Assembly: GCA_002714055.1 (NCBI GenBank)
Contig: PAWH01000005.1
Coordinates: 7,975 to 43,014 of the forward strand
DNA: 35,040 nucleotides
From: Candidatus Pelagibacterales bacterium
GTDB taxonomy: Bacteria > Pseudomonadota > Alphaproteobacteria > TMED109
Direction: 5' to 3'
A program made the translations under genes and the position numbers. The notes beneath the pieces are model-generated. The model was not told the origin of the DNA. It did no database searches and saw only the letters and a program-made list of their open reading frames with translations. Of this stretch, positions 12,624 through 33,171 are shown piece after piece; within the stretch, counting starts at the first letter, position 1; the number at the start of each line of letters is the position of its first letter.

Positions 12624-14403
12624 TTAATTTTTTTCATCAATTAGTTTTAAGAAATAATTTATTGAAATTAATGACATCGTAAATTGATCATATTCATAAT
12701 GTTTTTCTTCCATTAATTTTTTTAAATGTTTTTTTATTTCAGAAAAGTCTAAAAAGCTTATTTGAGACAATCTTTCACTATTTATTGTATCTTCGATATA
12801 TTCTGCCCAGTCATTTTTGAATAAATACCCTATAGGTAACCCCATTCTTTCAAAAGAATCATCTTTAGTTTTTTTTTTTATAATTTTTCTTTTTAAAAAA
12901 TTTAAAGTTTGAAAAATTGTTTTTCTATAACTAGAGTATTCTATTGGCATGTTAGTATTAGAACTTATTAATTTTGCAAGCTTTGGACTTAATTTTTTTA
13001 AACTTAATCTTTGAATTCTTGAATCAAACCTATATTCCCAAGGTAATCTTTGATAAAAATCAAATAAATCATTATCAAATAAAGGTGTTCTAATTTTTAT
13101 ACTAGAATTCATAGAAATAATATCAGAACGACTGTAATGTCTTGCTAAATCATGAAAAGTTAAAAATTCATATAAATCATTCTTAGAATTACAAAATTTT
13201 TTTCCTATATCTCTTATTTGTTCTAGTTCATGTCTTAATTTTTCCATCATTAACTTATAATTTTTCTTTTTTACAAAATCAAAAATATTAGCTCCTTTAG
13301 TTTTATATGGAATATTGTTCAAAAAATATTCAACTACGTTTTTAATTTTAACAGGGATTATTAAATCAAATTTTTTATTAATTAGTGTCAATTTTTTTCT
13401 AGGTAAATACATGCCTTGGAAAGCATAATCAAAACCATGACCATGTAAACAAACATCTACTTTTTTTTTAATATCCTTTCCATGATTATAAAATAAACAT
13501 TGCGGTTCATACGTTGCACTGGTTGAATAAATTGCTTCAGGAAAAGATTTTTTATAATGGTTTTTTTTATTTATAATAAAATAATGTGGAGTCTTAGCAA
13601 TACGCGCTGCTTCTTTAGCAACTTTAACTTCTCTATTTTTAAATGAATTTATTGTAAAAGTAGATAAATTAAAATTATTTTTTCTTGCACAAGCTAGTAT
13701 TAATCTGGTATCCATTCCTCCGCTTAAAAATAAACCAAATCTATTTTTATCAGACATTTTTTTTTTTTAAAGAATTTGTTAAGTGAAATATTAATTCATC
13801 ACTTGATTTATCAATATTTTTTTTGGTCTTTTGAATAAAATTAGGGTTCCAATATATTGTTTTGTATATTTTCTTTTCTTCAAATATTAATTTTGATGCG
13901 GGTGTTAATATTTTAACATTTTTGGCTGTTGTTTTTTCACCAAAATTTCTTCTAAATAATAGCAATTCAAATAACGAATCTTCATTTATTTTAAATAATC
14001 CTAGTTCTTTTAATCTAATAATTATTTCAAAAAGATTTAATGAAATCAAAAATATATTTTTATCTTTATAATACCATATAGTTGGAAAATTAAATCTACT
14101 TGAAATTATCTCAATTTTTTTTTTTGACAAAGAAATAATAACAAATTCACCGTCAACCTTTTTTAACCATTTATTTTTATTTTTATTATTTATAAATGAA
14201 AAAACAAAGTGTTTATTGCTAATTTTATTATTTATGATCGGATTACCTATAATGCATAATTTGTTATTAAAAAAATTATAAAAAGAAATATCTAAATTTT
14301 CTTTTTTATATTTTAAATAAGCAAAATCTTTTCCAAACTTTGACCAGATCTTGTTTTTATTCTTATATTTTGATATTTCTAAAATAAAACTAGGTAATGG
14401 CAT
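12624..14403 (-). pseudogene. AsnB-like amidoligase lacking the N-terminal Cys nucleophile, split by a frameshift in an A12 tract (genuine or a sequencing artefact)
   Basis: ORFs 13750-14403 and 12624-13757 overlap by 8 nt at T12 (+ strand 13757-13768). Removing one A gives ...ELIFHLTNSLKKKMSDKNRFGLFLSGGMDTRL. This parallels the two intact paralogues at the same position (..LISDVPLGSFLSGGIDSS and ..LYSDAKKCLFLSSGIDSS). The combined length of about 593 aa matches them. The N-terminus is MPLPSF, with no Cys2. Confidence 0.65.
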
Positions 14404-16182
14404 TTAACTTTTTAAAAAATCATTTACTATTTCTTTTCTAACTAAAAATCTTGTCCAACTTGGGTTTTGATTTAACTTCTTTTCTTTCAGATTATTAGTT
14501 ATTGAATCAGAAGAATATTTTTTATTCTTTTGTAAAAAATCTTCAAAAGGATATACAAACCCTTTTTTAAAACCAAAAATAAGTTTCTTTGGTAAGTATC
14601 GTTCTAAAATTTTCCTAAATATGAATTTTTGCGTTTTATATTTGTTATATTTAAATTTAGAAGCACTAAATAATGAAATTAAATTAGAGTTTAAATATGG
14701 AGATCTAAATTCATAGCCTGCTCTCATTCCACCATGATCAAACGTGATAAGTCGGCTGTTTGGCATCACATTTTTAAAATCAAAATTTTCTACACTTTTA
14801 AATAAATTATTTCCAGTAAAACTAGAAAAACTTTTTTTAGCCCACTCCTCCATATAAGGTATTTCTTTTAACTGACTTATTAAATTAGTATTTTTTAAAG
14901 CGATATATAAAAACTCATTTTTTACACCAAAAATATTTCTAAAAATTTCTATCTTACTATTGTAGTTATTTAATGGTTTTAGAATGAATGATATAAATAA
15001 TCTAAGTTTCTCTGGCATTGCATACAGATTCTTATATTTTTTTATAAATGTTTGTTTTCTATAACCTGAAGATATTTCGTCGCCACCCATACCAGTTATA
15101 CCTACTTTATATTTAAGTTTTTTTGCTATAAGAGCCATTTGATAAGTGGGAATAATTGTTAAATTATCATTAGGTTGCCCGTACATAGTTAATAAATAGT
15201 TTGTATCAACTTTTTTATCATCTAATTTACATGGTATTATTTGATGGGGTAGTTTTAAATAGTTAGCTATTTTTTTAGCTTCTTTAGTTTCATCTAAAGA
15301 TTTAGATTTGCCAAAACCTACTGTTATTGTATGAATATTATTTTTTAACTCTTTTGAAATTATTGAAGCTAATAAAGAAGAATCAATCCCACTTGAAAGA
15401 AAAAGACACTTTTTTGCATCTGAATACAAGCGTGATTTTACACTTTTAATTATCTCATTATTTATATCATCAATATAATTCTCATTAATATCTACTAACT
15501 CTTTATGATTTATATTCTCGCTATAATTAAATTTTTTTTTAATAACTCCTTTTTTTAACAAAATAGCTGTTGCTGGCTCAACACAAAAGATATTTTTATA
15601 CGCAGTGTATGGGCTTGGGACATATCCTAAAGCTAAATAAGCTGCAAGTTTTTCATTATTTAAATCTTTTTCTTTTTTTAACAATTTAACTAAAGGATAT
15701 ATTTCTGAAGAAATATAGACGCCATCTTTTGTAGTTGCATAAAACAGTTGTTTTTCTCCAAATTTATCTCTTGCTATCCAAATATTTTTTCCATTCCAAA
15801 TAACAAATGCAAACATTCCATCTAAATAATTAAGGCAAGAATTATTAAGGTTTTGCCAATATTTTAATAAAACTTCGGTATCAGAATTTGAGCAAAATTT
15901 AATACCTTTTAGTTCTAACTCTTTTTTAATTTCAAGAAAATTATATATTTCTCCATTATAAGCTAATACATGCTTATTATTAATCATTGGTTGGTTTCCT
16001 TTTAAAGATAAATCCATAATAGATAATCTAGTGTGTCCTATGTAAACTCCTTCTTTTTTATTGTACCATTCCCCATCAGAGTCTGGGCCTCTGTGTTTTA
16101 ACATTTTTTTACCTTCTCTTCCTAATAAAATATCTTTTTTATTTAAAGGTCTTTTTAAAATAAATGAAAATATTCCACACAT
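14404..16182 (-). CDS. asnB: Asparagine synthase (glutamine-hydrolysing) family amidotransferase
   Basis: MCGIFSF N-terminal Cys2, SDTEVLL, and a variant PP-loop FLSSGIDSS. 592 aa. Confidence 0.8.
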   Translation of the reverse strand: MCGIFSFILKRPLNKKDILLGREGKKMLKHRGPDSDGEWYNKKEGVYIGHTRLSIMDLSLKGNQPMINNKHVLAYNGEIYNFLEIKKELELKGIKFCSNSDTEVLLKYWQNLNNSCLNYLDGMFAFVIWNGKNIWIARDKFGEKQLFYATTKDGVYISSEIYPLVKLLKKEKDLNNEKLAAYLALGYVPSPYTAYKNIFCVEPATAILLKKGVIKKKFNYSENINHKELVDINENYIDDINNEIIKSVKSRLYSDAKKCLFLSSGIDSSLLASIISKELKNNIHTITVGFGKSKSLDETKEAKKIANYLKLPHQIIPCKLDDKKVDTNYLLTMYGQPNDNLTIIPTYQMALIAKKLKYKVGITGMGGDEISSGYRKQTFIKKYKNLYAMPEKLRLFISFILKPLNNYNSKIEIFRNIFGVKNEFLYIALKNTNLISQLKEIPYMEEWAKKSFSSFTGNNLFKSVENFDFKNVMPNSRLITFDHGGMRAGYEFRSPYLNSNLISLFSASKFKYNKYKTQKFIFRKILERYLPKKLIFGFKKGFVYPFEDFLQKNKKYSSDSITNNLKEKKLNQNPSWTRFLVRKEIVNDFLKS

Positions 16183-16333: not shown

Positions 16334-17002
16334 CTATTTTCTTAAATATTTTTTTACTAATCTTAAATCAGATAAATAATTAATATCTATGGAAACCTTC
16401 TTCTTCATTTTATAAGGAATGATTTTATTACCATAAATTTTACCTTTTATAACCAAATTTTTTTTCATTATAAGAATAGCAGGGCCATTTCTTATTATAT
16501 ATTCTTTATTTTTATTATAAAAATCGATTTTATTATTAAAAAAACTTAAATACCCGTTTTTTTCAATCATAATTTTAGATTTTTCTCTAACATTTTTTTT
16601 TGTAGTTACACTTACGAGTGTGTCTGGTTTTTTTTTATAAAATAACTTTATTGCACTATCAATATCTTTGCCGGTTCTTAAAGGTGACGTTGGTTGTAAT
16701 AAAACAATTAATTTAACTTTTTTAAAAATTTTCTTTTTAATTACATGCTTTATTACTTCTAACATATTAACTTTATCACCTGATAATTTTTTCGGACGAA
16801 CAAAAGGAGCTTTTATATTTAAATCCTTTGATAACTTAATTATTTTTTTACTATCTGTAGTTACAACAATATCATCAAGTAATTTTGAATTTTTTGCAGC
16901 TTCTAATGTATATTGCACTAATGGCTTTCCATTTAATTTAAAAATATTTTTATTTCGTATTCTTTTTGAACCAGATCTAGCAGGTACTAATCCTATTATC
17001 AT
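16334..17002 (-). CDS. Acylneuraminate cytidylyltransferase family (CMP-ulosonic acid synthetase; NeuA/PseF/LegF-like)
   Basis: MIIGLVPARSGSKRIRNKNIFKLNGKPLVQYTL N-terminus and LLQPTSPLR. 222 aa. Confidence 0.8.
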   Translation of the reverse strand: MIIGLVPARSGSKRIRNKNIFKLNGKPLVQYTLEAAKNSKLLDDIVVTTDSKKIIKLSKDLNIKAPFVRPKKLSGDKVNMLEVIKHVIKKKIFKKVKLIVLLQPTSPLRTGKDIDSAIKLFYKKKPDTLVSVTTKKNVREKSKIMIEKNGYLSFFNNKIDFYNKNKEYIIRNGPAILIMKKNLVIKGKIYGNKIIPYKMKKKVSIDINYLSDLRLVKKYLRK

Positions 17003-17003
17003 T

Positions 17004-18005
17004 TTAATTTATTTTGCTATATAACTCGTGTTGGTAGCCAAGGACTTCTGTGTGTCTTAACCTTTCCTCATTTGTAAAGTTTCCTGGTAAATTAATTTTT
17101 TTTAATTTTTTTAAAAATGTTGGTAATTTTTTTTGAAAAATAGTGGTGTAATGTAAATATAAAATTATTCGTGGATTATTTCTTTTATTTTTTAACGGTC
17201 TACTACCATAATGATAACATGAACAAGTATCAACAAATGCCATTTGTTTTTTTGGTCCGGTTAATTCAATTGGGTTTGTGTTAAGATTAAGTTTTTCTAT
17301 ATATGAATCAGGAATTTTCATATTTCTTTTATTTACTAGTTTTAATCGTTTCAATTTTGAATATATAGTTTTAGATATATCGCTCGGATAAATGGTTAAA
17401 GGGCCAGAATATTTGTTCACAGGATATAAATTAATAAAAAGTTTTACTTGTTTTAGATCCTCACCATCTAAATGAAAACTTTGAGAATTTCCTTGGGAAA
17501 AATTTTCATTTGGTGAATACCATAAATTTGCAGTATTTAAAACTGGTTTTGTTCCTAAATATTTAGAAATTATATCAATAATATTTTTATCACAAGAAAA
17601 ATCAAAAATAGGGGTTGCAGTAGGATCTGTTAAATCAAGAACAATACTTCTTAAAAAATCTTTTTTAAATTTTTTGTTTAATAAATTATTTTTATTTCTT
17701 TTAAAGATTTCGTTTGCACAGTTAATTGCTTTTATAAATTTTTTATTATTTCCATTTGTTATTAAAAAACCTTTCTTTTTATCAATTGAATATTTTAAAT
17801 TTTTTTTTATATATTTTCTTTTACTAAATATTCTGTAATTAAGTATTTTTGAAAAAAAAGTATATAACTTAATAGCAATAAAATTATCTGGCACAAAATG
17901 CATACCTATATATTGAGGTTTTTTTATTAAACTTACCAACCTAGCAAAAAAGGTTTGTCCTGATTTAGGCAAGAAAGAAATTAATTTTTTTAAAAATTTT
18001 ATCAA
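17004..18005 (-). CDS. Putative Fe(II)/2-oxoglutarate-dependent dioxygenase (PhyH-like)
   Basis: HxD motif in SQSFHLDGED, followed by a distal His (CSCYHYGSRP). The start codon is TTG (18005-18003), overlapping the upstream stop as TTGA. 333 aa. Confidence 0.5.
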   Translation of the reverse strand: MIKFLKKLISFLPKSGQTFFARLVSLIKKPQYIGMHFVPDNFIAIKLYTFFSKILNYRIFSKRKYIKKNLKYSIDKKKGFLITNGNNKKFIKAINCANEIFKRNKNNLLNKKFKKDFLRSIVLDLTDPTATPIFDFSCDKNIIDIISKYLGTKPVLNTANLWYSPNENFSQGNSQSFHLDGEDLKQVKLFINLYPVNKYSGPLTIYPSDISKTIYSKLKRLKLVNKRNMKIPDSYIEKLNLNTNPIELTGPKKQMAFVDTCSCYHYGSRPLKNKRNNPRIILYLHYTTIFQKKLPTFLKKLKKINLPGNFTNEERLRHTEVLGYQHELYSKIN

Positions 18006-18880
18006 TTTCTAATTTCAACCCATAAATGGCTAGCTAATTTATTTGCTTCTACATAATTTATATAAAGATTTTCAAATTCTTTATCAAATATTTTTAATTT
18101 ATTCAACCCACTGGGTTTTTTATCTCTTAACCACAGTAACAAATTAGAAAAGTCCATTTCATGATAATAAGATATTTTATATTTTTTAATTCCTGATTTT
18201 TTTAAAAAAAAACTCATTGATTCTTCATTAAAATATAATGTATGTGCAGTTCGAAAATTAAAAGAACTGAAACTATCAGGTATTAAATTCATTAAAATAT
18301 CATTAAAATTTGGCGTTACTATATATGCAGTTCCATTTTTATTTAATATTTGTTTAATATTTTTTAAGAATTCAACAGGTTGATTAATATGCTCAATTAC
18401 ATCAAAGGAAACAATTATATCTGCTTTAATTTTTTTTTTAATTAAATCTTCTGGATAAGAAAAAGTTAAGTGTTTTTTTTTTAAATAACTATGCCAAAAG
18501 AATGCCGGTTCAACTGCTATAGTTTTAGAAGAATTTTTTTTAATATTGTTTAAAAAAGTTCCGCCTCCTGCCCCAAAATCAGCAACTACTTTTTTTTTAA
18601 ACTTTGTTTCTCCTATTTTTTTTATTTTTTTTTTAATCCTGCTTTTATGTAATTTATGGTAAATATTTATTTCAGATGAATTATTAAATTTTTTTCTATA
18701 TTCATTTGTTTCATAAAAACTTTTCTTTTTTGGTTTTTCAAGAAATTTTAAATTGCATTTATTGCAATTAAAAATGCGAAATTTATTCTTAGTTAATTTA
18801 CCGAAAGATCCACTTCTAATTCTACCATAGTAAATCGTTTTTAAATTTTTGTTATTACCGCAATGACACCTATTATTCAT
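18002..18880 (-). CDS. Class I SAM-dependent methyltransferase with an N-terminal zinc ribbon
   Basis: Cys pairs CHCG...CNKCN at the N-terminus. SAM motif VADFGAGGGTFLN. Post-motif IIVSFDVIEHI. Confidence 0.75.
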   Translation of the reverse strand: MNNRCHCGNNKNLKTIYYGRIRSGSFGKLTKNKFRIFNCNKCNLKFLEKPKKKSFYETNEYRKKFNNSSEINIYHKLHKSRIKKKIKKIGETKFKKKVVADFGAGGGTFLNNIKKNSSKTIAVEPAFFWHSYLKKKHLTFSYPEDLIKKKIKADIIVSFDVIEHINQPVEFLKNIKQILNKNGTAYIVTPNFNDILMNLIPDSFSSFNFRTAHTLYFNEESMSFFLKKSGIKKYKISYYHEMDFSNLLLWLRDKKPSGLNKLKIFDKEFENLYINYVEANKLASHLWVEIRN

Positions 18881-18896
18881 TTTTTTTAATTAAATT

Positions 18897-20388
18897 TTAC
18901 CAATCTTCTAGGACTGTTTTTCTAAGTATTGGGTCTGCTCGTTGTATATTTCTATCTATATAAAAAGAATCTCCTTTTATATGTTTAGTTGAAATTTCTT
19001 CAAATATAACTCCTGTTTTTGTTTTAAATGAATGAATATCTCTTCTTTGTATTAATAATGTGTCGCCTTTTTTCAAATCAAATGTTTCATCATTTCTTTT
19101 TACAGTCATACTTCCTGATAAAATATGAAATGTTTCTTCTTTTTTTTCATGATAATGTGAAGGGTGGGATTGGCCCGGTAGTTGAGCAATTAACTTTTTA
19201 CAATAATCTCTATTAATTATTGTTATTAGTAAAGCGCCAACTTTCTCGAATTTATCCATATCATAATGGTGCGACAACTCTATTTCGTAATTATTGCCAA
19301 TTGTAACATTGGCTTCATTAAACATTCCTTTAAAAATATGTATTAATCTTCTTATCTTATAAAAGTCTAGTTTTTTTGGAAAATCGATAATTGGCTCATT
19401 TTTTTTATAATTTTTTGTTGATTTAATTGAAATATTAAAATCACCAGAAGTTAATTGCTTATTTTGAACCGGCATAGCAAAATAAATTTTATCTTTTGAA
19501 ATTAATTCATTTTTTTTTTATTTCTTTTTTACAGTAGACTCCCCTTGCTAATTCCTTAATTGAGTTTACTTCTTCTTTAGTAAGTATTTTATTATCTTCT
19601 AAACCTAATATTTCTTTTGCTTCTTTAGATGAATCAATCCATCTGTCTAATTGTAATTTATTTAATGAATATTTGTTTAATGGTTTATTAATATCATCAA
19701 TACCAACGTGTCTTTCTAATATATCCGCCCCTGCAGTTACTGCCATTTTTACAGTTTCAAAATCCTCTGGGTTTTCATGACCTGAATAACCAATGCAAAT
19801 ATCGGGGTATCTGTTTTTATATTTTTTAATTAAATTTAAATTTAAATTTTTTCTTGGCGTGGGGTAGATACTTACACAATGCATTAGCGCAAAATTTACA
19901 TTTCTATGAATAAAAAAATTATATACTTTATCAACACTTTCTAGGTTATGACCTCCAGTAGAAATAATTACAGGTTTTTTTGTTGAACTAATTTTTTCTA
20001 ATAATGGCCAATCTGACATACTGCAACTGGCAACTTTTATAATAGATAAATCTTGTTTTTGACATAAATCAACTGAAGATTCATCAAAAGGGGTTGAAAT
20101 TGGGATTAACCCTTTTTTTATAATATATTTAACTAGAACATTGAAATCTTTTATACTTAATTCAGTATCCAAGAATCTTTTTACATGTTTATTTTCGTTG
20201 CTTTTAATGTATTTAGGATGAATAAAATTTTTTAAATTTCTATATTGCAATTTAACAGCTCCTTTTATCGAGAATCTTTTTGCAACTATTGCACACTGAT
20301 CGATTATTTTCTTTGCTGATAAAATACTTCCAGAATGATTATTAGCCATTTCAAAAATATATAAATCTTTAAAAATTAAATTATTCAT
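18897..20388 (-). pseudogene. Divergent NeuB-family ulosonic-acid synthase fused to a SAF domain and a D-lyxose-isomerase-like cupin, split by a frameshift in an A10 tract (genuine or a sequencing artefact)
   Basis: ORF 19507-20388 has a NeuB-like TIM-barrel (FEMANNHSGS, KLQYR, IKVASCSM, IISTGG, CVSIYPTP, GYSGHE, ERHV) and stops inside the start of its SAF domain (ARGVYCKKEIKKK*). The frame of ORF 18897-19475 is open upstream to the tract (NELISKDKIYFA-MPVQNKQLTSGDF). Removing one A of T10 (+ strand 19510-19519) gives KKEIKKNELISKDKIYFAMP, which parallels KRKIKKNQIIEFDDLTFKKP in the bona fide neuB of this window. The C-terminal cupin has HPSHYHEKKEETF ... IHSF ... EEISTKHIKGDSFY. Confidence 0.65.
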
Positions 20389-21814
20389 TTTTTAACTTTT
20401 CAACAGTTCTTTCAATTGCATCCTTTTTGTCATTTTTTTTATTAAATTTAAAAAAGCTAATTAAATCTCTTAAAGGTTGTGTTAATTTCCAAGAAGTAGA
20501 ATTCAAAATATTTTGAATTTCTGTATTTGGGCTATATAACTTATATTTGTCGCTTAAATTGTCTACATGAATCCAGTTTTTTTTATTAAAATCTTTAAAG
20601 TTAATTTTATAAATATCTCCAGTGTATCTATCTGACACAAAAAAAGAATTATTTGAAGTTCGGATAATACTATGTGGATTTACGGAAGTTTTATACAAAT
20701 CTGAATAATGCCACTCGTTATCAATTTTTTTTATACCTTTAATAATTCCTGAACAAAAATCAGAAAAAATAAAAACTCCATCCCAATTTTTATCATTTCC
20801 ACGAAATGTTCCTCCTGCTATAACTGAACAACCTTCTTTGTGATTCCATTCAATTATTGGCCATTTATATTTGATATTTTTCCTGTTTCTCAATGTCTCA
20901 GAACGGCAATCTTCTTCACTAGCAAACATATCTTTTCTACAATGTAGTCCTTCAAATTTATTCCAACCGTAATTTTCCTTACCTGAACTTTCATTTGATT
21001 GAAAATTAATTTCTTCATAATTATCCCATCCTGTATCAGCAATATATAAATCTCCATTTTCAGTATCAAAAACAATTCCAGATTTAGCGGGGGATCTTAA
21101 ACCATACGCCCATATTTCAGATCTTTTCCCCTTAGATTCATGATAATAAGGATTGCTCTTAGGTATTTCATAACCATTCTCCATAGAATCAACATCAATT
21201 CTTAAAATTTTTCCCTCTAACTTTTTTAAATTTTGCGCAGTACCACTTGGATTACCTCCAATATCCCCGTCTCCGATTCCAATATAGAGAAAATTATCTT
21301 TAGGACTGAAATCTAATGAACCAGCTGCATGTTCATAAGTATGTTTTTCAATATCAATTAAAATTTCTTCATTTACAGAAATAAGACTTTTACAATCATC
21401 AGTAACATTGAATCTACTTAAAACAAAGTTGCCAAATTTGTTTGTATAAGTTACATAAACTTTTTTTTTAATCTCGCCAAATCTATATGAAAAAGCAAAA
21501 TCTAAAATTCCTTCTTCCATTGAATTACCTTGTTCTTCTCCTCCCAACAAAACTTTATTTCTTAAATCAGCAAAAGGTTCTTGAAGTTCATAATGTTCAT
21601 TATCTTTATATACTAATAATTTTGCTATACCTGAATGTCTACCAAATAAAATAAAGCTATTTTTACTATTCTCTCCACAGTTTGTAGGAAAAGGTGTCAT
21701 TAATGTAAATGGAAACAAACCCTTTTTATAAAAAGAAACATCAACTTGATTAGCAAAACAAGTATTAAAATATAAAAAAAAGAAAAAAGAAGTTATTATT
21801 AGTTTTTTTAACAT
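20381..21814 (-). CDS. PQQ-dependent (glucose/sorbosone-type) sugar dehydrogenase-like beta-propeller with a signal peptide
   Basis: N-terminus MLKKLIITSFFFFLYFNTCFANQ. Family motifs GIGDGDIGGNPSGTAQNLKKLEGKILRID, EIWAYGLRSPAK and NYEEINF....GKENYGWN. 477 aa. Confidence 0.7.
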   Translation of the reverse strand: MLKKLIITSFFFFLYFNTCFANQVDVSFYKKGLFPFTLMTPFPTNCGENSKNSFILFGRHSGIAKLLVYKDNEHYELQEPFADLRNKVLLGGEEQGNSMEEGILDFAFSYRFGEIKKKVYVTYTNKFGNFVLSRFNVTDDCKSLISVNEEILIDIEKHTYEHAAGSLDFSPKDNFLYIGIGDGDIGGNPSGTAQNLKKLEGKILRIDVDSMENGYEIPKSNPYYHESKGKRSEIWAYGLRSPAKSGIVFDTENGDLYIADTGWDNYEEINFQSNESSGKENYGWNKFEGLHCRKDMFASEEDCRSETLRNRKNIKYKWPIIEWNHKEGCSVIAGGTFRGNDKNWDGVFIFSDFCSGIIKGIKKIDNEWHYSDLYKTSVNPHSIIRTSNNSFFVSDRYTGDIYKINFKDFNKKNWIHVDNLSDKYKLYSPNTEIQNILNSTSWKLTQPLRDLISFFKFNKKNDKKDAIERTVEKLKNE

Positions 21815-21819
21815 ATTTA

Positions 21820-22779
21820 TTAATTAATTATTTTTTTTGATTTTAAAATTTGTTTATTAATTTCAATGCTATTTTTAAAATCATGTAACGGAAATTTTTT
21901 ATTTTTTAAACAAATATTCAAGAAGTAATCTATAGACTTTTCTAATGAATTATTCATTATATCTTCTTCAGATATTTTCCATGTTTTAGAAACAGAAGAT
22001 CTACAATATCTTTTAGTGTGAATATTTTTTTTATGTCCTATCAAAAGTTGTGCTTTATTATCATAAATCTCGAAAATTCCATTTGTTCCAATTAATTTAA
22101 TATGAAAATCAAAAGCTGTCACATAGGAAAGATAAATAAATAATTTTAAATTATTTGGATATTTGGCTATAACAGAACAATTATCATAAGAGCTTGTTTC
22201 TTTTACTATATTACTAGAATAATGAATAATTTCTTTTGGTTTATTAAAAAGAATTGAGAAAAGATCTATATAATGTATTCCAACATTCTCAACAAGACCT
22301 AATTTATTTAATGTTTTTTTAGATCTCCATGATTTCTTATAATTAATATTTTTCCCAAACAAATGCGATGATGAAATATAAGCATGGTAAATATTTCCTA
22401 ATTTTTTCCTTTTTATTAAATCATTTAGAATATTAAATATTTTACCATATCTTAAATTAAAATTAAAAAACGTTTTTTCTGGATCATTTTTTAACTTGTT
22501 AAGTTCTTTTAGTGATACTGCCGGAGGTTTTTCACAAAAAATATATCCCTTAAATCTTTTCTCAAAAAACTTTAAATATTTATAATGAGTATAATTCGGA
22601 GATAATATTAATATTACATCACAATTAATTAAATCATTTAAATTTCTAGTAAATTTAATTCCATTAATTTTTTTTGGATAGTAAATTTTACTGATAAATA
22701 CATTTTTTCTTTTTTTAAAAATTTCTAGAATTTTTTTAGCATGATTCTTATAACCAATTGCACCAACATTTAATTTCAT
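21820..22779 (-). CDS. Gfo/Idh/MocA-family NAD(P)-dependent oxidoreductase
   Basis: KLNVGAIGYKNHAKK Rossmann start and the IFCEKPPAVSLKEL (EKP) motif. The start is set at ATG 22779, one nt after the upstream stop, rather than the GTG at 22800. Confidence 0.75.
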   Translation of the reverse strand: MKLNVGAIGYKNHAKKILEIFKKRKNVFISKIYYPKKINGIKFTRNLNDLINCDVILILSPNYTHYKYLKFFEKRFKGYIFCEKPPAVSLKELNKLKNDPEKTFFNFNLRYGKIFNILNDLIKRKKLGNIYHAYISSSHLFGKNINYKKSWRSKKTLNKLGLVENVGIHYIDLFSILFNKPKEIIHYSSNIVKETSSYDNCSVIAKYPNNLKLFIYLSYVTAFDFHIKLIGTNGIFEIYDNKAQLLIGHKKNIHTKRYCRSSVSKTWKISEEDIMNNSLEKSIDYFLNICLKNKKFPLHDFKNSIEINKQILKSKKIIN

Positions 22780-22780
22780 T

Positions 22781-23899
22781 TTATAAACCACACCTATCAC
22801 ATGGATTATATTTATGTCTTTTCTTTTCTAGGTGAAGTTTTCTTAATTTATTTAATTCTTTGCTATGCCAAATTTGTTTAATTGTTTTATTACTCAAATT
22901 TCCAGGTGATAATAAGCTTTTATAATCAGCATCACATGGATTGCAAACACCATCGAACCAAATATATAATCTTTCCCAAAGATATACACATGGATGATTA
23001 TTTTTTTTATTTGGTATATTCTCATATGTATTCCATCTTTCTTGACACTGAACATATGCAACGTTATCAACTATTTTAGACCAAAATTTTTTAAATTCTT
23101 TTTCATTTTGTTCTTTCTTAAATTTAACACCAGAGACTCTTATTTCTAACCCAGAGTTTTTATAATACTTGTTTCTAATATCTGCTAAAAGTTTAATATT
23201 TTTTAATACCTGCGTATATTTTCCACCCTTTCTTATCTCCTCATATTGTTTTTCTATATGTGAATCTATTGAAATTACAACAATATTTATATTTGAATTT
23301 AATATTTCATGACATAATTTTTCATTTAATTTTGTTGCATTAGTATTTAATTTAACATCAATAAAGTTTTTCTTTTTTGAAACATATTTTATCATTTGAG
23401 AAATCTTTGGGTGGAGCAAAGGTTCACCTCTACTTGCAAGTGTTATGGCAGATGTCCCATTGCTTGAAGCTTCATCAATTATTTTTTTAAAAAGATTGAA
23501 ATTCATAAATCCCATAAAAGGTTTTTTAGTAAAACTCTTATCAATTTGAAAACACATTACACATCTTAAATTGCATACTGAAGTAGGTTCAACAAGAAGA
23601 TATACAGGAAATTTAGAAATAATTTTTTTTTCAGGATAAATATTTAATTTATATCTATAAATTAAATATTTTATCCATTTTTTTTCATCCATTCTTTCTA
23701 AATGAAAATATTCTTGAGGAGTTAAAATAAAAGGAAATTTATTATTATTTAAACTATTAATTAATTCATCAATAATTATTCGATCTTCTGATACTAATTT
23801 TAAACTTTTTGCTAATTTAATAATTTTTTTTAAATTAATAAAAGGTGTTTTTTTATTTTGTAAAAACCTCAATCCAGAAGGATGTTTAAAATTTACCAT
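22781..23899 (-). CDS. Radical SAM enzyme with a C-terminal SPASM/twitch-like Cys-rich domain
   Basis: CxxxCxxC in VEPTSVCNLRCVMCFQ, with SRGEPLLHP. C-terminal cysteines HPCVYLWERLYIWFDGVCNPCDADY ... NPCDRCG. 372 aa. Confidence 0.8.
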   Translation of the reverse strand: MVNFKHPSGLRFLQNKKTPFINLKKIIKLAKSLKLVSEDRIIIDELINSLNNNKFPFILTPQEYFHLERMDEKKWIKYLIYRYKLNIYPEKKIISKFPVYLLVEPTSVCNLRCVMCFQIDKSFTKKPFMGFMNFNLFKKIIDEASSNGTSAITLASRGEPLLHPKISQMIKYVSKKKNFIDVKLNTNATKLNEKLCHEILNSNINIVVISIDSHIEKQYEEIRKGGKYTQVLKNIKLLADIRNKYYKNSGLEIRVSGVKFKKEQNEKEFKKFWSKIVDNVAYVQCQERWNTYENIPNKKNNHPCVYLWERLYIWFDGVCNPCDADYKSLLSPGNLSNKTIKQIWHSKELNKLRKLHLEKKRHKYNPCDRCGL

Positions 23900-23977: not shown

Positions 23978-25108
23978 CTAGATACATTTGTTTTTTTTTT
24001 TTTTAATTTTATAAATTTTTTTTTTTAAAATAAGATATAAATTATTCATATTTACTACACTTCTTAATTTTTTACTTTTTATCCAAGAAAAATTCAAATT
24101 TACAAAATCTAGATTTATTATTGGTATATTACATATTTCTGCAACAGAAACAGTTGTTGAATTACCACATAAATATATGTCTGATATAGGAATCAGATCT
24201 ATATAAGATTTTTTTGAGATAATGAAATTATAATTTTTTATTAAATTTTTGTAGAAATTTAAATTAGTTTTCGGGTGAAAAATTAAAATAACATTCTCTT
24301 CAATACGGTGTAAAACTTCGAAAATAATTTTTAAGTGTTTTAACTGTGTTTTCATAGAAATTATGTTGTGTTCTGGATTATGAGGAACTGAAAATAAAAT
24401 AATTTTCTTTTTTTTAATAAATTTCTTATTACTAAAGAATTCTTTTACAATATTTTCTTTATTATTTATTGAATTTAATAAATTATCATATTCCAAGGCT
24501 CCAAAATTCAGAATTTTTTCTCTTTTTAATCCTAAGTTTAACATATGTTTAATTTCTTTTTTTCCTTTAGCTATTATATGATCACTTTGACTAGCTCCAA
24601 CGCACCATGGTTTTTTTGGAAGCATGCCTACAAAATGTAAACATAAGATTAAAGGTCCAGGTGAAAATAATAATCTTCCGTATTTAGTTTTACATAATTG
24701 GTTTCTAAAAAAAAAAGAAATTAATAAATTTAGAAAACTCATTAAATTATCTATTCCAACCTTAAATTCTTTTTTGTTCTTCCTTGTCCACGAAACCATA
24801 TCTAATGATGGCAGTAAAGAAGATGTTGTTGTAATTATTGTTTTAATTTTTAATTTATTAGCAACTTTTAATATAGGTGGGATTGGTCCAAGTTCTCTGT
24901 CACCAGGCAGCAAAATTGCTATAGGCTTAAAATTATTAAATAATTTATAAAAAAAATTATAATCCTTTCTAAGTTTTTTTATTGTAAAAAAAAAACTTTT
25001 AAGATTAACAATATTTTGAATTTCTTTTGTTTTTAAAAAAATAAAATTAATTTTTTTCTTTATGCAATAATGTTTAAATATTATTGTTTTATTAGTACCT
25101 AAAATCAT
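23978..25108 (-). CDS. Putative capsular-polysaccharide biosynthesis / glycosyltransferase-like protein (KpsS/LpsZ-type). The N-terminus may extend to about 25210.
   Basis: C-terminal LCGNSTTVSVAEICNIPIINL resembles the NST..EA...P motif of capsule-synthesis proteins. The frame stays open for 40 codons upstream of ATG 25108; the last 34, counted from an ATA at 25210-25208, read IKKKKIVFLVPRHETSWWQHIFQYYLLKKDFFPI. There is no ATG/GTG/TTG in that stretch. Confidence 0.45.
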   Translation of the reverse strand: MILGTNKTIIFKHYCIKKKINFIFLKTKEIQNIVNLKSFFFTIKKLRKDYNFFYKLFNNFKPIAILLPGDRELGPIPPILKVANKLKIKTIITTTSSLLPSLDMVSWTRKNKKEFKVGIDNLMSFLNLLISFFFRNQLCKTKYGRLLFSPGPLILCLHFVGMLPKKPWCVGASQSDHIIAKGKKEIKHMLNLGLKREKILNFGALEYDNLLNSINNKENIVKEFFSNKKFIKKKKIILFSVPHNPEHNIISMKTQLKHLKIIFEVLHRIEENVILIFHPKTNLNFYKNLIKNYNFIISKKSYIDLIPISDIYLCGNSTTVSVAEICNIPIINLDFVNLNFSWIKSKKLRSVVNMNNLYLILKKKIYKIKKKKNKCI

Positions 25109-25229: not shown

Positions 25230-26615
25230 TTAAATTGATTTTCTATTTTTTTTATAATTTAAAATAATTTGCTTTATAATTTTAATTGTTTTTGCTTTTA
25301 AATTATGTGGCCTAGAATCTAGATAATGCTTAAAAATATCCTCTGACCCAAAATAATAATTAAATTTTTTATCTTTAGAATTATTTATACATTTATTTAT
25401 TTTATTTGATAAATCTAAAGGATTATTTGCAATAAAAAAATTTTTTTGAAACTTTTTAAAATAAACATTCTTTCTTTCAACTCCTACTGCTTCATCAAAA
25501 TTTGGAATTATAGGTTTGCATCCTAATGCTAGAGCTTCCAATAAAACTGTAGAATTAAAGCCGATAACATTTATAGAATTTTTTATTAAATAAATTGATG
25601 GTTTGTTTGTTATAACTAGGTTCTTTATACTTTCAATATCTTTTCCAGAAACTTTTTTTATAACATTTTCTATTTCATTTATCCACCAGTCTGCCCAATT
25701 CTTGGGTTTTATATAAAAAGTAATATTTGCATTATTTAACGCACTTAAAATAAATGTTTTATGCGTGTTAAAAAAAAGTTTTGAGAAACCTTCGTCATAA
25801 TTCTTTGAAAAGTAATGAGACCTTCTATTTTTTGGAACAATATTGCCTGAATAATGACCAAATGAAAATAGAGTAAAAAATTTTTTGTTTACTATTTTTT
25901 GTTTTTTAATTTCTTGAAATTTTAACATACCTGATGAATAAATATTTTTTTTATCTATCAATTTAGATTTAATAAATAAATCTCTAACAATTTTATTTGG
26001 TGCAACAACAGCTGTTCCTTGAAATTTTTGTTTAATTTTTTTTAAATGTTTTGCTCTAAAATTAATATGACCTCTGTCAGTTATAGATTGTTCTTTATGA
26101 AGACATATAAAAGGTATGCCTCCTTTATGAAATCCTGATGCCCATTCTTGTTCCTGACTATAATGTATTGCGCATGTTAAAGCACAGTCAATCTTTGTAA
26201 AAAAATTTATTGTTCTAACAATATTGGATACAAAAATAGATTTTTTTCTTCTTTCATTTAAAACTTTTTTTTTTGTTTTTAAATAATAATATTGGTCAGC
26301 GGATTTGCCCCAAAAACCAAGATCCTCATATCTTATTTTTTTATAATTCTTTTCTATTTGAGCATTAATAGGATTTGTATTAAATAAGGAATTTATTCTA
26401 TTGTAAATAAAATCAGAAATTATAATTAAACAAATATTCTTTTCTCTTTCTAATAACTTGACGCTATCAGCCCATCTGTGATGACTAAAAATAATTATTC
26501 TTAAACTCGACCTCTTTTTAAAAAAAATTAATTTTAAAAAAAACAAACTTATAAAAATTCCTAAAATAAATCCAAAGAATTTATTCTTTAAAATAATTTT
26601 AATTAATTTAATCAA
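25230..26615 (-). CDS. Putative membrane-anchored capsular-polysaccharide biosynthesis / glycosyltransferase-like protein
   Basis: N-terminal TM helix FFGFILGIFISLFFLKLIFF. C-terminal VIGFNSTVLLEALALGCKPIIP motif. TTG start (26615-26613) overlaps the neuC stop as TTGA. 461 aa. Confidence 0.45.
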   Translation of the reverse strand: MIKLIKIILKNKFFGFILGIFISLFFLKLIFFKKRSSLRIIIFSHHRWADSVKLLEREKNICLIIISDFIYNRINSLFNTNPINAQIEKNYKKIRYEDLGFWGKSADQYYYLKTKKKVLNERRKKSIFVSNIVRTINFFTKIDCALTCAIHYSQEQEWASGFHKGGIPFICLHKEQSITDRGHINFRAKHLKKIKQKFQGTAVVAPNKIVRDLFIKSKLIDKKNIYSSGMLKFQEIKKQKIVNKKFFTLFSFGHYSGNIVPKNRRSHYFSKNYDEGFSKLFFNTHKTFILSALNNANITFYIKPKNWADWWINEIENVIKKVSGKDIESIKNLVITNKPSIYLIKNSINVIGFNSTVLLEALALGCKPIIPNFDEAVGVERKNVYFKKFQKNFFIANNPLDLSNKINKCINNSKDKKFNYYFGSEDIFKHYLDSRPHNLKAKTIKIIKQIILNYKKNRKSI

Positions 26616-27763
26616 TAGGAGATTTGTTTTTGTATTTTAACCTTAACTTTTTGAAGAATATTTGATATTTTCTTCCCGGAACTACCTTCGCCATAAATAT
26701 ATTCTTTTTTATATTTTTTTTTCTTAATTTGTTTTAATATAGAATTATATATTTCTTCTTTCTTATAATCACAATCAATTGTATTTTTTCCTCTTTCTCT
26801 TCTTGATTGCCTTGTTCCTATATTAACAACTGGTGTTCCTATATACGCGCCTTCCCTTATACCGCTTGAAGAATTGCCAACTAAACAACTGGTTTTTGAC
26901 ATTAATTTCATGTATATTTCTGGTGGAAAATTTTTATAAAATCTTGCATTAGTTATTTTTCGTTTTTCTCTGTATTTTCTAAATATTCTAGAAATATCAT
27001 CTGAACCCGCATCTGGGTTTGGCCAAAGAATTATTTTTTGCATATTTATTTTAATAATTGCCTCCATAGTAGCTTCTATTTGTCTTGTAGTGTTATTACA
27101 TTCAGTTGTAACAGAATGCTGAGAAACCATAATAAATGGTTTTTGAAAATTAATTTTATCTCCTACACCTGAATCCAAAAATTTATTATTTAAATTAAAT
27201 TTTTTTTCATTTAAAACATTTTTAGCTAAATCGATTCTTGGGCAACCAACTAGAAAAACGGTTTCTTTTTTTTCTCCTAATTTTATTATTCTTTCTTTAG
27301 CATCTTTGCTTGCAGGAAAATGTATATGTGAAAACTTTGTTATTGCATGTCTTATGCTTTCATCAATTGTCCCTGAAACTTCACCGCCCATTGTATGTGC
27401 TATAGGAATATTCATATAACTAGCTGCAATAGAAGTAGCCATATTCTCATATCTGTCTCCAACAATTACAACTATATCTGGTTTTAAGTGTTTAAAAACT
27501 GTTGGAAGCTCAAGTAAGCCCATGCCGGTTGACTTTGCCATCGTTTCTACAGTCTCGCCCTCAACAAGCATATGAACTTTATGATTTATTTTAAATCCGT
27601 CTTTTTTAATCAAATCAATAACGGATCCAAATCTATCTATTAAAGCTGATGCTCCAACAACAATTTGTAAAGTTAAATTCTTATTTTTAGATACACTTTC
27701 TAGAACAGATTTAATACTGCTATAATTAGCTCTGGATGATATAACTGCACAAATTTTTTTCAT
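26612..27763 (-). CDS. neuC: UDP-N-acetylglucosamine 2-epimerase (hydrolysing type)
   Basis: VGDRYENMATSIAASYMNIPIAHTMGGEVSGTIDESIRHAITKFSHIHF, typical of NeuC/LegG-type epimerases. 383 aa. Confidence 0.85.
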   Translation of the reverse strand: MKKICAVISSRANYSSIKSVLESVSKNKNLTLQIVVGASALIDRFGSVIDLIKKDGFKINHKVHMLVEGETVETMAKSTGMGLLELPTVFKHLKPDIVVIVGDRYENMATSIAASYMNIPIAHTMGGEVSGTIDESIRHAITKFSHIHFPASKDAKERIIKLGEKKETVFLVGCPRIDLAKNVLNEKKFNLNNKFLDSGVGDKINFQKPFIMVSQHSVTTECNNTTRQIEATMEAIIKINMQKIILWPNPDAGSDDISRIFRKYREKRKITNARFYKNFPPEIYMKLMSKTSCLVGNSSSGIREGAYIGTPVVNIGTRQSRRERGKNTIDCDYKKEEIYNSILKQIKKKKYKKEYIYGEGSSGKKISNILQKVKVKIQKQISY

Positions 27764-27766
27764 ATT

Positions 27767-28750
27767 TTAATAATAATCTCCAATTTTTAGGATATAATCA
27801 TCTTTCAAATTTTTTTTTGCTCTTTTTCCTAATATTTGCTTATATTTTCTAGGGCTAATTCCATATCCAGGTTTTTTAAAAGTTAAATCATCAAATTCAA
27901 TTATTTGATTTTTTTTTATTTTTCTCTTTATAACTATACTTTTTTCAAAAATCATTTTCATTTTTTTTAATTTTCTTAAATTATTCTTATTTACATCATT
28001 TTTTATAATAATTTGAGCTTCATTAAGGCAATTAACCATGTTTCGAAATTCATCTGGCTCCAAAGCATTAAAAGCATCGCTACCATACATCTTTCTTGAC
28101 AAAGTTAAATGTTTTTCAATAGCTGTTGTTTTATAAAATACAGAAAGTATGGCAGCTGTAATTCCAATTGTATGATCTGAAAAACCTACTGGTCTATTAT
28201 ATTTCTTTTTTATTTCAGCAATAATATTCAACCCGGCATCTTTTAAAGTACAAGGGTATAAGGATGTGCATTGCATTATAGTTAATTTTTTAATATCTTT
28301 TAATTTTTTTACTGCTAAATCTAATTCTTTCCAATTAGACATTCCTGATGATAAAAAAGTTGGTTTATTAATTTTATTTATTTTTTCAATTAAAGGAATA
28401 TTTGTAATTTCTCCTGATGGTATTTTATAATTTTTAACTTTAATTTTTTCTAATAAATCTATTGCTTCTAATGAGAATGGAGATGATAAAAAGTTTAATT
28501 TCTTTTTTTCAACATAATTTTTTAATTTTTTCCATTGATTAATATTAAAACTAGTTCTTTTAAAATAATCATATCTTTTTTCTTTTTTAAAATATTTAGG
28601 AGAAGGAGCATTTCTTAAAGTTTCTGCTTCAGCAATATGTGTTTGAAACTTAACAGTAGTAGCCCCACAGTCTTTTGCTTTATCTACTAATTTAAAAGCT
28701 AATTTTAATGATCCGTTATGTACTGAACCAATTTCTGCAATAATGTCCAT
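27767..28750 (-). CDS. neuB: N-acetylneuraminate (nonulosonate) synthase with a C-terminal SAF domain
   Basis: IIAEIGSVHNGSL, VKFQTH, KIPSGE, FLSSGMS, CTSLYP, GFSDHT, EKHLT, and SAF tail KRKIKKNQIIEFDDLTFKKPGYGISP. Confidence 0.85.
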   Translation of the reverse strand: MDIIAEIGSVHNGSLKLAFKLVDKAKDCGATTVKFQTHIAEAETLRNAPSPKYFKKEKRYDYFKRTSFNINQWKKLKNYVEKKKLNFLSSPFSLEAIDLLEKIKVKNYKIPSGEITNIPLIEKINKINKPTFLSSGMSNWKELDLAVKKLKDIKKLTIMQCTSLYPCTLKDAGLNIIAEIKKKYNRPVGFSDHTIGITAAILSVFYKTTAIEKHLTLSRKMYGSDAFNALEPDEFRNMVNCLNEAQIIIKNDVNKNNLRKLKKMKMIFEKSIVIKRKIKKNQIIEFDDLTFKKPGYGISPRKYKQILGKRAKKNLKDDYILKIGDYY

Positions 28751-32432: not shown

Positions 32433-33171
32433 TTACTTTATTTTCTTTAAATATCCTGACTGATTGCATGAAAAAAATAATTTTTTATCAATATCTTTAT
32501 CTATTATAAAATTTTTATTATTTTTTAAAAAAGCTGCTACCGCTGTCATTGGATTTTTCTTTAAATCCCAAGGCCTTTTTCTTCCTTTAACCTTGCCGCC
32601 TATAAAATTTAAAATTGTATCGCATACAATTATGTAAGATTTCTTTGATACATACTTAGAATAAAAATTTAATTCATCTAAAACATGTTGGTGTGTATGA
32701 TGTGAATCTAAAATAACCATAATTTTTTTTTTTCTTTTTAAATTCATTTTTTAATTTTTTATCAATATCTTTACTTAAAGAATTATTTTTAATTAGCTCA
32801 ATTCTTTTTGAAAATTTTTTATTTTTTAATTTATTGACAATTTTTTTATCTAAATTTAAATCTATACCAATAACTTTACCTTTATTTATACTATCTAAAA
32901 TTGTTGCATAAAATAAAATACTGCCTCCCCAAGCAACCCCAGTTTCAACTATAATATCGGGTTTAATTTCAAAAATTTTCTCTTGAATTACAATCATATC
33001 TGAAGGTGATTGCAAAATTGGTTCCCCAAGCCAATCCCATTGATAGACATAGCTCAAATCAGTTGCTATTTCATTAAATTTTTGTGAATAAACTCTTAAT
33101 TTATTTGATTTACCAATGGCCTCTAGGTATTTTTTTCTTTGTTTCTCAAATAATTTTCTATTAAATGTCAC
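32433..33171 (-). pseudogene. CmcI (cephalosporin hydroxylase)-family methyltransferase split by a frameshift in an A11 tract (genuine or a sequencing artefact)
   Basis: ORF 32674-33171 carries WDWLGEPILQSPSDMIVIQEKIFEIKPDIIVETGVAWGGSILFYA...VIGIDL. ORF 32433-32747 carries the second half, IMVILDSHHTHQHVLDELNFYSKYVSKKSYIIVCDT. Removing one A of T11 (+ strand 32723-32733) joins them as ...NEFKKKKKIMVILDSHH. The start is GTG at 33171. Confidence 0.65.

Follow-up and report, generated by a model that had tools for sequence, protein, structure and literature searches.

The question raised by the stretch of DNA considered here, a 35,040-nucleotide window from a Candidatus Pelagibacterales metagenome-assembled genome (MAG; assembly GCA_002714055.1, contig PAWH01000005.1), is whether two adjacent open reading frames (ORFs) on its minus strand, at 18897-19475 and 19507-20388, encode one protein, and what that protein is likely to make. 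The two ORFs are one gene, whose product joins a NeuB-type synthase barrel and a SAF domain to a cupin with the fold of the D-lyxose/D-mannose isomerases. This fusion defines a very widespread protein family which is not peculiar to the Pelagibacterales genome in which it was noticed. In the reading that we regard as probable, the protein is a bifunctional enzyme at the head of a three-step route, in which a ketose would be isomerized, the resulting aldose would be condensed with phosphoenolpyruvate (PEP) to give an ulosonic acid that carries no amino groups, and this acid would then be activated with cytidine monophosphate (CMP). What appears to be new is the fusion, the two-gene module to which it belongs and the breadth of their distribution; both of the domains, and the logic of the pathway, are of kinds already known.

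A single gene interrupted at a homopolymer

The elements on which the reconstruction of the gene depends are the following.

18897..20388, minus strand: NeuB-SAF-isomerase fusion gene, 496 amino acids, frameshifted here into ORFs of 293 and 192 amino acids
19510..19519, minus strand: A10 homopolymer (T10 on the plus strand), which shifts the reading frame within the SAF domain, following residue 293

The 293-residue ORF (20388..19507, minus strand) terminates at a TGA created by the A10 run, and the 192-residue ORF (19475..18897, minus strand) continues in a different frame; when one A is deleted from the run, an uninterrupted protein of 496 residues results. The preliminary description of this DNA, which was made from the sequence alone, had proposed one gene broken at the A10 tract with a product of about 495 residues, and its coordinates and strand were right. 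An intact protein of 496 residues (P0271) is 100% identical to the corrected translation, as is the representative of its cluster (P0001), which is 483 residues long because it is read from a later start. The tract is A9 in all six of six independent metagenome contigs (L001-L006, from Tara Oceans and other marine samples), whose DNA is 99.7-99.9% identical to that of the window, and it is also A9 in a relative, L090, which is 80% identical to the window. Given the identical protein that is intact elsewhere and the A9 tract in seven related contigs, the two ORFs constitute a single gene. The simplest and most likely account of the extra A is an error in the homopolymer or its assembly, or else a rare variant. 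Programmed frameshifting was also considered and was dropped, since the relatives all have A9 and a single reading frame for the protein.

The possibility that the ORFs are two independent genes, encoding hypothetical proteins of 293 and 192 residues as deposited, is extremely improbable. It agrees with the GenBank annotation of the MAG, in which the halves are entered separately, and with the existence of a few stand-alone cupins of the same type, two of which (P0233 and P0246) lie beside a 345-residue NeuB in the contig L094. The break, however, is located within the SAF domain; the start codon of the 192-residue ORF is Met305 of the corrected protein, an internal methionine whose aligned position is conserved; DNA nearly identical to the window, as well as the genomes of at least 577 species, carries the gene intact; and L094 itself contains fragmented genes of the kind typical of indel errors. 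Three other contigs considered in looking for stand-alone cupins beside unfused NeuB genes (L093, L095, L096) are too short to bear on that arrangement.

A second alternative, which we judge unlikely but would give appreciable weight, is that the gene is truly broken in the sampled Pelagibacterales population, either as a pseudogene or through a slipped-strand on/off switch at the poly-A tract. The A10 form is common to the MAG contig and to one other, separate assembly in the European Nucleotide Archive (L089, Tara run ERR599159), another gene in the window is also split at a poly-A run, and the indels that distinguish the near-identical contigs from the window are confined to changes in homopolymer length. 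The independence of L089 is nevertheless doubtful, because its Tara run may be the MAG's own source sample, and the six other contigs and the 80%-identical relative have A9. No further disabling changes are present, the protein sequence to either side of the tract shows 100% conservation, and homopolymer miscalls are a common artefact of assembly.

The other split gene is of the CmcI/rhamnosyl O-methyltransferase type (32433-33171, minus strand) and appears as overlapping ORFs at 32433-32747 and 32674-33171, which match the two halves of PF04989 and meet at an A11 run, so that it represents a second homopolymer frameshift within the window. A further one-base difference between the window and the near-identical contigs (L001, L005, L006), A13 against A12, occurs near ~23991, and L006 has a one-base poly-A change of its own at 18625 by which its methyltransferase gene is split. 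Across the island, then, the length of poly-A runs is either unstable or wrongly assembled.

The synthase and its SAF domain

The N-terminal two thirds of the corrected protein comprise two domains.

19603..20367, minus strand: NeuB-type TIM-barrel PEP-condensing domain, residues ~8-262, recognized by Pfam NeuB, by alignments to 3g8r and the Neisseria meningitidis NeuB (NmNeuB), and by Foldseek
19395..19581, minus strand: SAF/antifreeze-like domain, residues ~270-331, broken by the frameshift and recognized by TIGR03569 and 3g8r alignments

The barrel matches Pfam NeuB (PF03102) far beyond chance, with an E of 8e-47 and 160.1 bits where the curated threshold is 22.1, and the closest solved structure for the whole N-terminal part is 3g8r, with a sequence E of 5e-73 and a Foldseek E of 4e-34 (template modelling (TM) score 0.88 on the target, 329 columns); the sequence match to NmNeuB has an E of 4e-29. 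The SAF region is covered by TIGR03569, which aligns over residues 11-331 and reaches profile position 327 of 329, and by the 3g8r alignment, which reaches residue 324. The Pfam SAF model gives no match at E<=1 for the fusion sequence itself and weak matches in the relatives P0136 and P0184. The three-part NeuB-SAF-cupin architecture that had been proposed is thus borne out by Pfam for its two outer parts (NeuB and Cupin_2) and by TIGR03569 and 3g8r for the middle one, on which Pfam SAF is silent.

The catalytic residues were compared in an alignment of the fusion, NmNeuB, the canonical NeuB encoded elsewhere in the window, 3g8r and the Prymnesium parvum Kdn-9-phosphate synthase (sequence from the supplement of PMC6200933), where Kdn denotes 3-deoxy-D-glycero-D-galacto-non-2-ulosonic acid. 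The fusion retains E13, H18, K46, Q48, K118, S121, S143, Y175, S202, H204, E225 and H227, and among these the two metal-binding histidines and the PEP-binding Lys, Ser and Gln residues are invariant in the alignment. All of the universally conserved NeuB residues are kept, and the N-terminal part is predicted to be a competent PEP-condensing ulosonic acid synthase, one that is not tuned to N-acetylated substrates; of the points that make up the proposed mechanism this is the most certain.

Three positions at which the fusion departs from NmNeuB bear on the acceptor: E134 is replaced by Ser123, D247 by Asn, and Arg314 by Met305, which lies within a near-invariant FAMP motif. Arg314 of NmNeuB is an essential SAF residue that binds the N-acetyl group of the substrate. 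The PDB entries 4ipi and 4ipj are the R314A and R314K mutants of that enzyme.

These replacements must be weighed against the reading in which the protein is an ordinary N-acetylneuraminate, legionaminate or pseudaminate synthase with a mere accessory cupin. The database name “N-acetylneuraminate synthase (family protein)” would suit such an enzyme, as would the position of the Bacillota copies beside Maf flagellin glycosyltransferases, which are known for the transfer of pseudaminic (Pse) and legionaminic (Leg) acids. Yet the protein misses both equivalog cut-offs by a wide margin, scoring 169.2 bits against 399.65 for NeuB (TIGR03569) and 134.9 bits against 340.25 for PseI (TIGR03586), and it has lost the counterparts of Arg314, E134 and D247. 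In a context sample in which the ORFs of 80 fusion loci were clustered and neighbours within 10 kb were considered, a NeuC homologue was found at 0 of the 80 loci and a DegT aminotransferase at only 6, and the window contains a separate canonical set of sialic-acid-type genes. The low equivalog scores, the change of Arg314 to Met and the near absence of NeuC and DegT genes together argue that this is not an N-acetylneuraminic acid (Neu5Ac), Pse or Leg enzyme, and the accessory-cupin alternative is accordingly very unlikely.

Among solved structures, the Chromobacterium violaceum “probable spore coat polysaccharide biosynthesis protein E” (3g8r) belongs to the same NeuB subfamily as the fusion, with which it has in common the FEMANNHxG, KLQYRN, SCS and SAF FAxP motifs; it is 350 residues long and has no isomerase domain, whereas the fusion adds ~165 residues of lyxose-isomerase fold. 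Literature searches found no published function for 3g8r, a structural genomics entry. NmNeuB (1xuu) and PseI (8h2c) resemble the fusion in their TIM barrel with a domain-swapped SAF cap, metal histidines and PEP Lys/Ser residues, but the identity is ~26%, and the fusion has no linked NeuC or amino-sugar pathway.

The isomerase-like C-terminal domain

18900..19391, minus strand: cupin with the D-lyxose/D-mannose-isomerase fold, residues ~333-496, recognized by Foldseek, by profile comparison with the PDB, and by Pfam Cupin_2 and Lyx_isomer

The C-terminal domain consists of an N-terminal helix, an SHHY strand and a cupin which supplies the putative metal ligands H411, H413, E418 and H452, together with K398, K416 and E464. 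It matches Pfam Cupin_2 at 2.6e-12 and Lyx_isomer (PF07385) at 4e-5 (23.4 bits against 20.8), the latter match being partial and covering profile positions 57-110 of 222. The AlphaFold models are confident, the pLDDT being 91.6 for the full-length protein and 89.9 for the 192-residue ORF. When the C-terminal model is compared with the PDB by Foldseek, the top ten matches are all lyxose isomerases, led by Bacillus subtilis YdaE (2y0o; E 1.8e-11, TM 0.71, root-mean-square deviation 1.8 A, 163 columns of a 171-residue chain) and including the Thermofilum enzyme (7nzo/p/q) and Escherichia coli Z5688 (3kmh/3mpb), with small archaeal phosphomannose isomerases and L-ribose isomerases ranked lower. 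A profile of the family's domain finds the same structures by sequence (2y0o at 5.8e-12, 7nzo at 8.4e-10).

The active site is conserved as well. The sugar and metal contacts of the Thermofilum enzyme, TsLI, are K62, H75, H77, K86, E88, H143, E156 and D163, and equivalents of K86, E156 and D163 are reported to be essential (PMC8378251). In alignments built with hidden Markov models (HMMs), the first seven of these eight residues align with K398, H411, H413, K416, E418, H452 and E464, which are invariant across the fusion family. The domain therefore appears to be fully equipped for catalysis as a metal-dependent aldose-ketose isomerase forming manno- or lyxo-configured aldoses, a prediction second in certainty only to that made for the synthase.

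The preliminary description had quoted FEMANNHSG (residues 11-19), KLQYR (residues 46-50), HPSHYHEKKEETF (residues 408-420), IHSF (residues 451-454) and EEISTKHIKGDSFY (residues 463-476) as motifs of the protein, all of which are present, and had assigned the cupin to the D-lyxose/mannose-isomerase type. The type agrees with the Foldseek ranking, the profile matches to 2y0o and 7nzo and the seven aligned invariant residues; the exact strings that it had given for YdaE are imprecise, the YdaE sequence reading HRH-x8-KQE. The HMM searches and structure prediction that it had suggested for the corrected fusion return the isomerase fold with its metal ligands retained.

The likeness to YdaE, TsLI and E. 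coli O157 Z5688 extends over the entire C-terminal domain, and both the 3His+Glu site of the D-lyxose isomerases and the Lys/Glu residues required for their activity are retained. The differences are an identity of ~20-22%, a shorter loop between the HxH and KxE motifs, additional invariant residues specific to the fusion (SHHY and, in domain numbering, R63, R118 and R159-K160), and the attachment of the domain to a synthase, where the known enzymes are free-standing.

It is conceivable that the cupin does not supply an aldose at all, but is instead a ring-opening or anomerizing helper, an epimerase acting on the substrate or product, or a sugar-binding regulatory domain. Generic cupins are matched too (an AraC ligand-binding domain at 8e-6 and WbuC at 0.004, with KdgF and CapF cupins in Foldseek), the open-chain aldehyde is the form that NeuB enzymes use, and ring opening is the first proposed step of the lyxose isomerases (PMC8378251). 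Against such a role, the match spans the whole ~165-residue lyxose-isomerase fold and not the barrel alone, the proton-transfer residues K416, E418 and E464 and the metal ligands are invariant across phyla, and no other precursor-supplying gene is conserved around the module in the 80 loci. We therefore regard a non-supplying cupin as unlikely, though a live rival, and prefer to see the domain as a probable isomerase.

Distribution of the fusion family

A scan of one genome per species confirmed the fusion in at least 577 species from more than 8 phyla. The hosts include Bacillota, Bacteroidota, Gamma- and Alphaproteobacteria, Desulfovibrio, Planctomycetes, Verrucomicrobia, Chloroflexi, Acidobacteria, Ignavibacteria and one candidate-phylum lineage. 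The best 120 matches of a protein search are all 483-511 residues long and are nearly all annotated as NeuB plus cupin. When the C-terminal module is used alone as the query, 742 clusters at 50% identity are found, 315 of them with E<=1e-10, and most of the clusters that bear the module are ~490-515 residues long with the module at the C-terminus. Databases label these proteins only in general terms (“N-acetylneuraminate synthase family protein” or [quoted passage not shown]), and the fusion family is not covered in the SugarBase preprint. A tblastn search of plasmids found only ordinary NeuB genes (BpsE and a haloarchaeal NeuB) and not the fusion.

A rare architecture, P0136, extends the fusion to NeuB-SAF-isomerase-HAD_2 over 723 residues. 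Two other rare variants were seen: P0184 has a C-terminal extension containing DxDD, and in P0217 an isomerase-like cupin is fused to a thiamine-diphosphate enzyme.

Conserved neighbours of the fusion

16334..17002, minus strand: PseF-like CMP-sugar cytidylyltransferase, 222 amino acids, without a HAD domain (CTP_transf_3 at 1.3e-25; PseF at 2.6e-35, below the cut-off)

The sole broadly conserved neighbour across the 80 loci is a PseF-like CTP_transf_3 cytidylyltransferase of a single cluster, which is present at 63 of them in many phyla and usually lies directly upstream of the fusion. Two genes of the window are among the 70 members of the cluster, as are a few second copies. One of these two is the 16334-17002 gene, which is the probable activating partner of the fusion in the Pelagibacterales genome.

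Many of the partner proteins also carry a second enzyme. A C-terminal HAD-like domain with a DxDG[TV] motif is found in ~40-47 of the 70 cluster members, and it matches TIGR01689, “capsule biosynthesis phosphatase”, at 3e-5 and the PDB entry 9iqw at 9e-14. The HAD-like domain of the Lysinibacillus fusiformis protein (L007, 8973-10004) groups nearest to 9iqw, “capsule biosynthesis protein”, and 1xpj; literature searches found no paper on 9iqw.

The wider setting of the module varies between lineages. Genes for Maf-like (MptE-like) flagellin glycosyltransferases occur at 48 of the 80 loci and flagellin genes at 39, and in Bacillota the module is located in flagellin-glycosylation islands with Maf transferases. 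Many of the loci also contain CDP-glycerol glycerophosphotransferase, IspD/TagD-type and LicD genes. A Methyltransf_23 methyltransferase resembling that of the window (18002-18880) adjoins the fusion in distant genomes, namely in the Lysinibacillus locus L007 and in L014, L026, L030, L044 and L073, and at L095 a methyltransferase of this type lies beside a stand-alone cupin. At L092, which encodes the relative P0008, the two-gene module is found in a phosphonate-glycan locus with genes for a PEP mutase, a thiamine pyrophosphate-dependent decarboxylase, an iron alcohol dehydrogenase and a CDP-alcohol phosphatidyltransferase, a context which suggests phosphonate decoration of the sugar in certain lineages.

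A proposed route from central metabolism

The simplest pathway compatible with these observations would be fructose-6-phosphate (Fru-6-P) to mannose-6-phosphate (Man-6-P), then with PEP to Kdn-9-phosphate, Kdn and finally CMP-Kdn. In its first step, the C-terminal cupin would convert a ketose into a 2,3-cis (manno or lyxo) aldose at a Mn/Zn-type 3His+Glu site with the help of a Lys/Glu pair, the ketose being most likely Fru-6-P and less likely free fructose or another ketose phosphate. In the second, the SAF-capped NeuB-type barrel would condense this aldose with PEP to yield a 3-deoxy-2-ulosonic acid without amino groups, most likely Kdn-9-phosphate or Kdn. In the third, the 16334-17002 cytidylyltransferase would make the CMP-sugar, and in most other genomes the HAD phosphatase fused to the partner would strip the phosphate. 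In the Pelagibacterales island, the methyltransferase and other neighbours would probably then decorate the sugar for use in a surface glycan. The analysis shows that one gene is involved, which domains it encodes, that their catalytic residues are conserved and that the genes are linked; that the cupin isomerizes a ketose, which way the flux runs, which sugar is made, including its Kdn-like nature, and that it is phosphorylated are all predictions drawn from sequence and gene context.

Two features of the module bear on the nature of the acceptor. Third in order of certainty, the module needs no further genes devoted to precursor supply, so that central metabolism must provide the acceptor; fourth, a phosphatase is recurrently built into it, which points to a phosphorylated intermediate. 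The preliminary description had suggested free fructose/mannose or xylulose/lyxose as the substrates; the recurrent HAD phosphatases point instead to Fru-6-P/Man-6-P. Its broader claim, that the fusion represents a second, non-amino ulosonic-acid route beside the canonical one, fits the loss of the N-acetyl-binding Arg, the absence of NeuC from the sampled loci and the linkage to a dedicated cytidylyltransferase.

The proposed steps have a precedent in the Kdn pathway of Bacteroides thetaiotaomicron and P. parvum, in which Man-6-P and PEP are converted to Kdn-9-phosphate, Kdn and CMP-Kdn (PMC6200933). The proposed logic of synthase, HAD phosphatase and CMP-transferase is the same, although the known Kdn-9-phosphate synthases have no fused isomerase, the P. 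parvum enzyme has no SAF domain, and the phosphatase of the fusion module, which belongs to another HAD type, forms part of the cytidylyltransferase polypeptide. The fusion and the P. parvum synthase also have in common three features that are not found in NeuB enzymes using N-acetylmannosamine, namely Ser where NmNeuB has E134, the motif KxQxR, and SGH replacing SDH, and because the P. parvum enzyme is specific for Man-6-P (PMC6200933), these substitutions may lend modest additional support to a Man-6-P-type acceptor. On paper there is also a parallel with the KdsD-KdsA-KdsC-KdsB pathway to 3-deoxy-D-manno-octulosonic acid (Kdo), which proceeds through a ketose-phosphate isomerase, PEP condensation, a phosphatase and CMP activation, but the Kdo proteins (a SIS-fold isomerase, the KdsA barrel and a KdsC-type HAD among them) are all four unrelated or only distantly related to those of the fusion module, which packs the steps into two polypeptides in place of four.

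Several observations weigh against this proposal, or at least against its simplest form. The window's own partner cytidylyltransferase has no HAD domain, and when the unassigned ORFs were scanned with Pfam and NCBIfam at relaxed thresholds, no phosphatase was recognized in the window. The eighth active-site residue of TsLI, D163, falls two positions away from the invariant D473 in the HMM alignment. The characterized lyxose and mannose isomerases are catabolic enzymes whose substrates are free sugars, not phosphates. Membership of the known Kdn-9-phosphate synthase clade was considered and rejected, the fusion being only 25% identical to the P. parvum enzyme (E 1e-9), which is nearer to the canonical NeuB of the window (27%, 3e-19). 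Other ketose phosphates (xylulose-5-phosphate, ribulose-5-phosphate or sedoheptulose-7-phosphate) could possibly be the starting point, leading to other and possibly novel products. Literature searches found no publication on the NeuB-SAF-isomerase family or architecture with which the proposal might be compared.

With these points taken into account, the bifunctional three-step route remains the explanation that we consider somewhat better than even. A more ambitious combination of claims is offered tentatively, as somewhat less likely than not: that a ketose phosphate of central metabolism, PEP and cytidine triphosphate are converted by two polypeptides into a CMP-activated non-amino ulosonic acid, which could be Kdn or an undescribed sugar (such as an octulosonic acid from xylulose-5-phosphate or a ten-carbon acid from sedoheptulose-7-phosphate); that the open-chain aldose is handed directly from the isomerase to the NeuB site; and that the sugar is an unrecognized flagellin glycan of many gut Lachnospiraceae and other Bacillota as well as a surface sugar of SAR11, Bacteroidota, Gammaproteobacteria and candidate-phyla bacteria.

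The Pelagibacterales island

The genes that accompany the fusion in the window, beyond its partner, are as follows.

17004..18005, minus strand: 333-amino-acid protein between the methyltransferase and the cytidylyltransferase, its position kept in L001-L006, L089 and L090
18002..18880, minus strand: S-adenosylmethionine-dependent methyltransferase (Methyltransf_23/DREV type), immediately downstream of the fusion
20381-21814, minus strand: GSDH-like beta-propeller (glucose/sorbosone-dehydrogenase-like) with a hydrophobic N-terminus, its 3' end overlapping the start of the fusion by 8 bases
21820-22800, minus strand: GFO/IDH/MocA oxidoreductase
22781-23899, minus strand: radical SAM/SPASM protein

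Read along the minus strand, the genes of the window and of its close relatives are arranged as radical SAM/SPASM, GFO/IDH/MocA, GSDH-like, fusion, methyltransferase, 333-residue protein and 222-residue cytidylyltransferase. The methyltransferase probably modifies the sugar. The 333-residue protein has no Pfam or NCBIfam match; by eye it contains an HxD...H pattern (FHLDGED ... CYHYG) reminiscent of Fe/2-oxoglutarate dioxygenases. The three genes in 20381..23899, upstream of the fusion and in its orientation, characterize the SAR11 version of the cluster; they keep the same order in L001-L006 and L090, while the GSDH-like and GFO/IDH/MocA genes occur at 0 of the 80 other loci and the radical SAM gene at 1, and a role for their products in the pathway is suggested solely by linkage. 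The GSDH-like protein is an odd partner for a cytoplasmic sugar pathway.

A second ulosonic-acid module, and further genes related to it, lie elsewhere in the island.

2866-3591, minus strand: KdsB-like CTP_transf_3 cytidylyltransferase, which passes an NCBIfam subfamily cut-off
26612-27763, minus strand: NeuC-type epimerase of the canonical set
27767-28750, minus strand: NeuB+SAF of the canonical set
28762-29496, minus strand: CTP_transf_3 cytidylyltransferase of the canonical set
33910-35040: DegT aminotransferase

The canonical neuCBA-type set, which had been described as lying 7 kb away, was found 6-9 kb upstream of the fusion with all three of its members. The NeuB of this set reaches 340 bits where the equivalog model for NeuB requires 399.65, and either Neu5Ac or a Leg-type sugar could accordingly be the product; with the DegT gene nearby, it may be the Leg-type sugar rather than Neu5Ac. 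The 35-kb island has three CTP_transf_3 genes, one KdsB-like and two PseF-like below the cut-off, and may thus supply up to three CMP-activated ulosonic acids.

Two large minus-strand genes, 23978-25108 and 25230-26615, separate the ulosonic-acid modules, one with a weak Epimerase_2-like match (1e-5, below the cut-off) and the other encoding 461 residues with no family match; their products may be glycosyltransferases for CMP-sugars. Three asparagine-synthase-like genes (7573-9489, 12624-13757 and 14404-16182, minus strand), one of which lacks the glutamine amidotransferase domain, may encode amidotransferases that act on carboxyl or acetamido groups of sugars. A further gene, 29504-30478 (minus strand), encodes a 324-residue double-cupin fusion of an RmlC dTDP-4-dehydrorhamnose 3,5-epimerase (1e-62) and a WxcM/FdtA-like C-terminal domain (4e-29).

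Implications

The biology of bacterial nonulosonic acids is organized around three routes, those to neuraminic acid (Neu), Leg and Pse, all of which, to our knowledge, begin with nucleotide-activated amino sugars. If the proposed reading is true, a widespread two-gene nonulosonic route that starts from central metabolism would be added to these three, and the absence of precursor-supply genes at the fusion loci would be explained. The fused isomerase-synthase would also be a compact biocatalyst for the conversion of cheap ketoses to Kdn-type sugars. At a practical level, the public record of the MAG carries both halves of the enzyme as hypothetical proteins.

For the organisms that carry the module, its product would be a candidate for the unidentified Maf-transferred flagellin sugar of many gut and soil Bacillota. 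SAR11 are the most abundant marine bacteria, and their variable glycosylation island is thought to shape their interactions with phages and grazers; in these bacteria, the fusion flags what would be a second or third acidic surface sugar.

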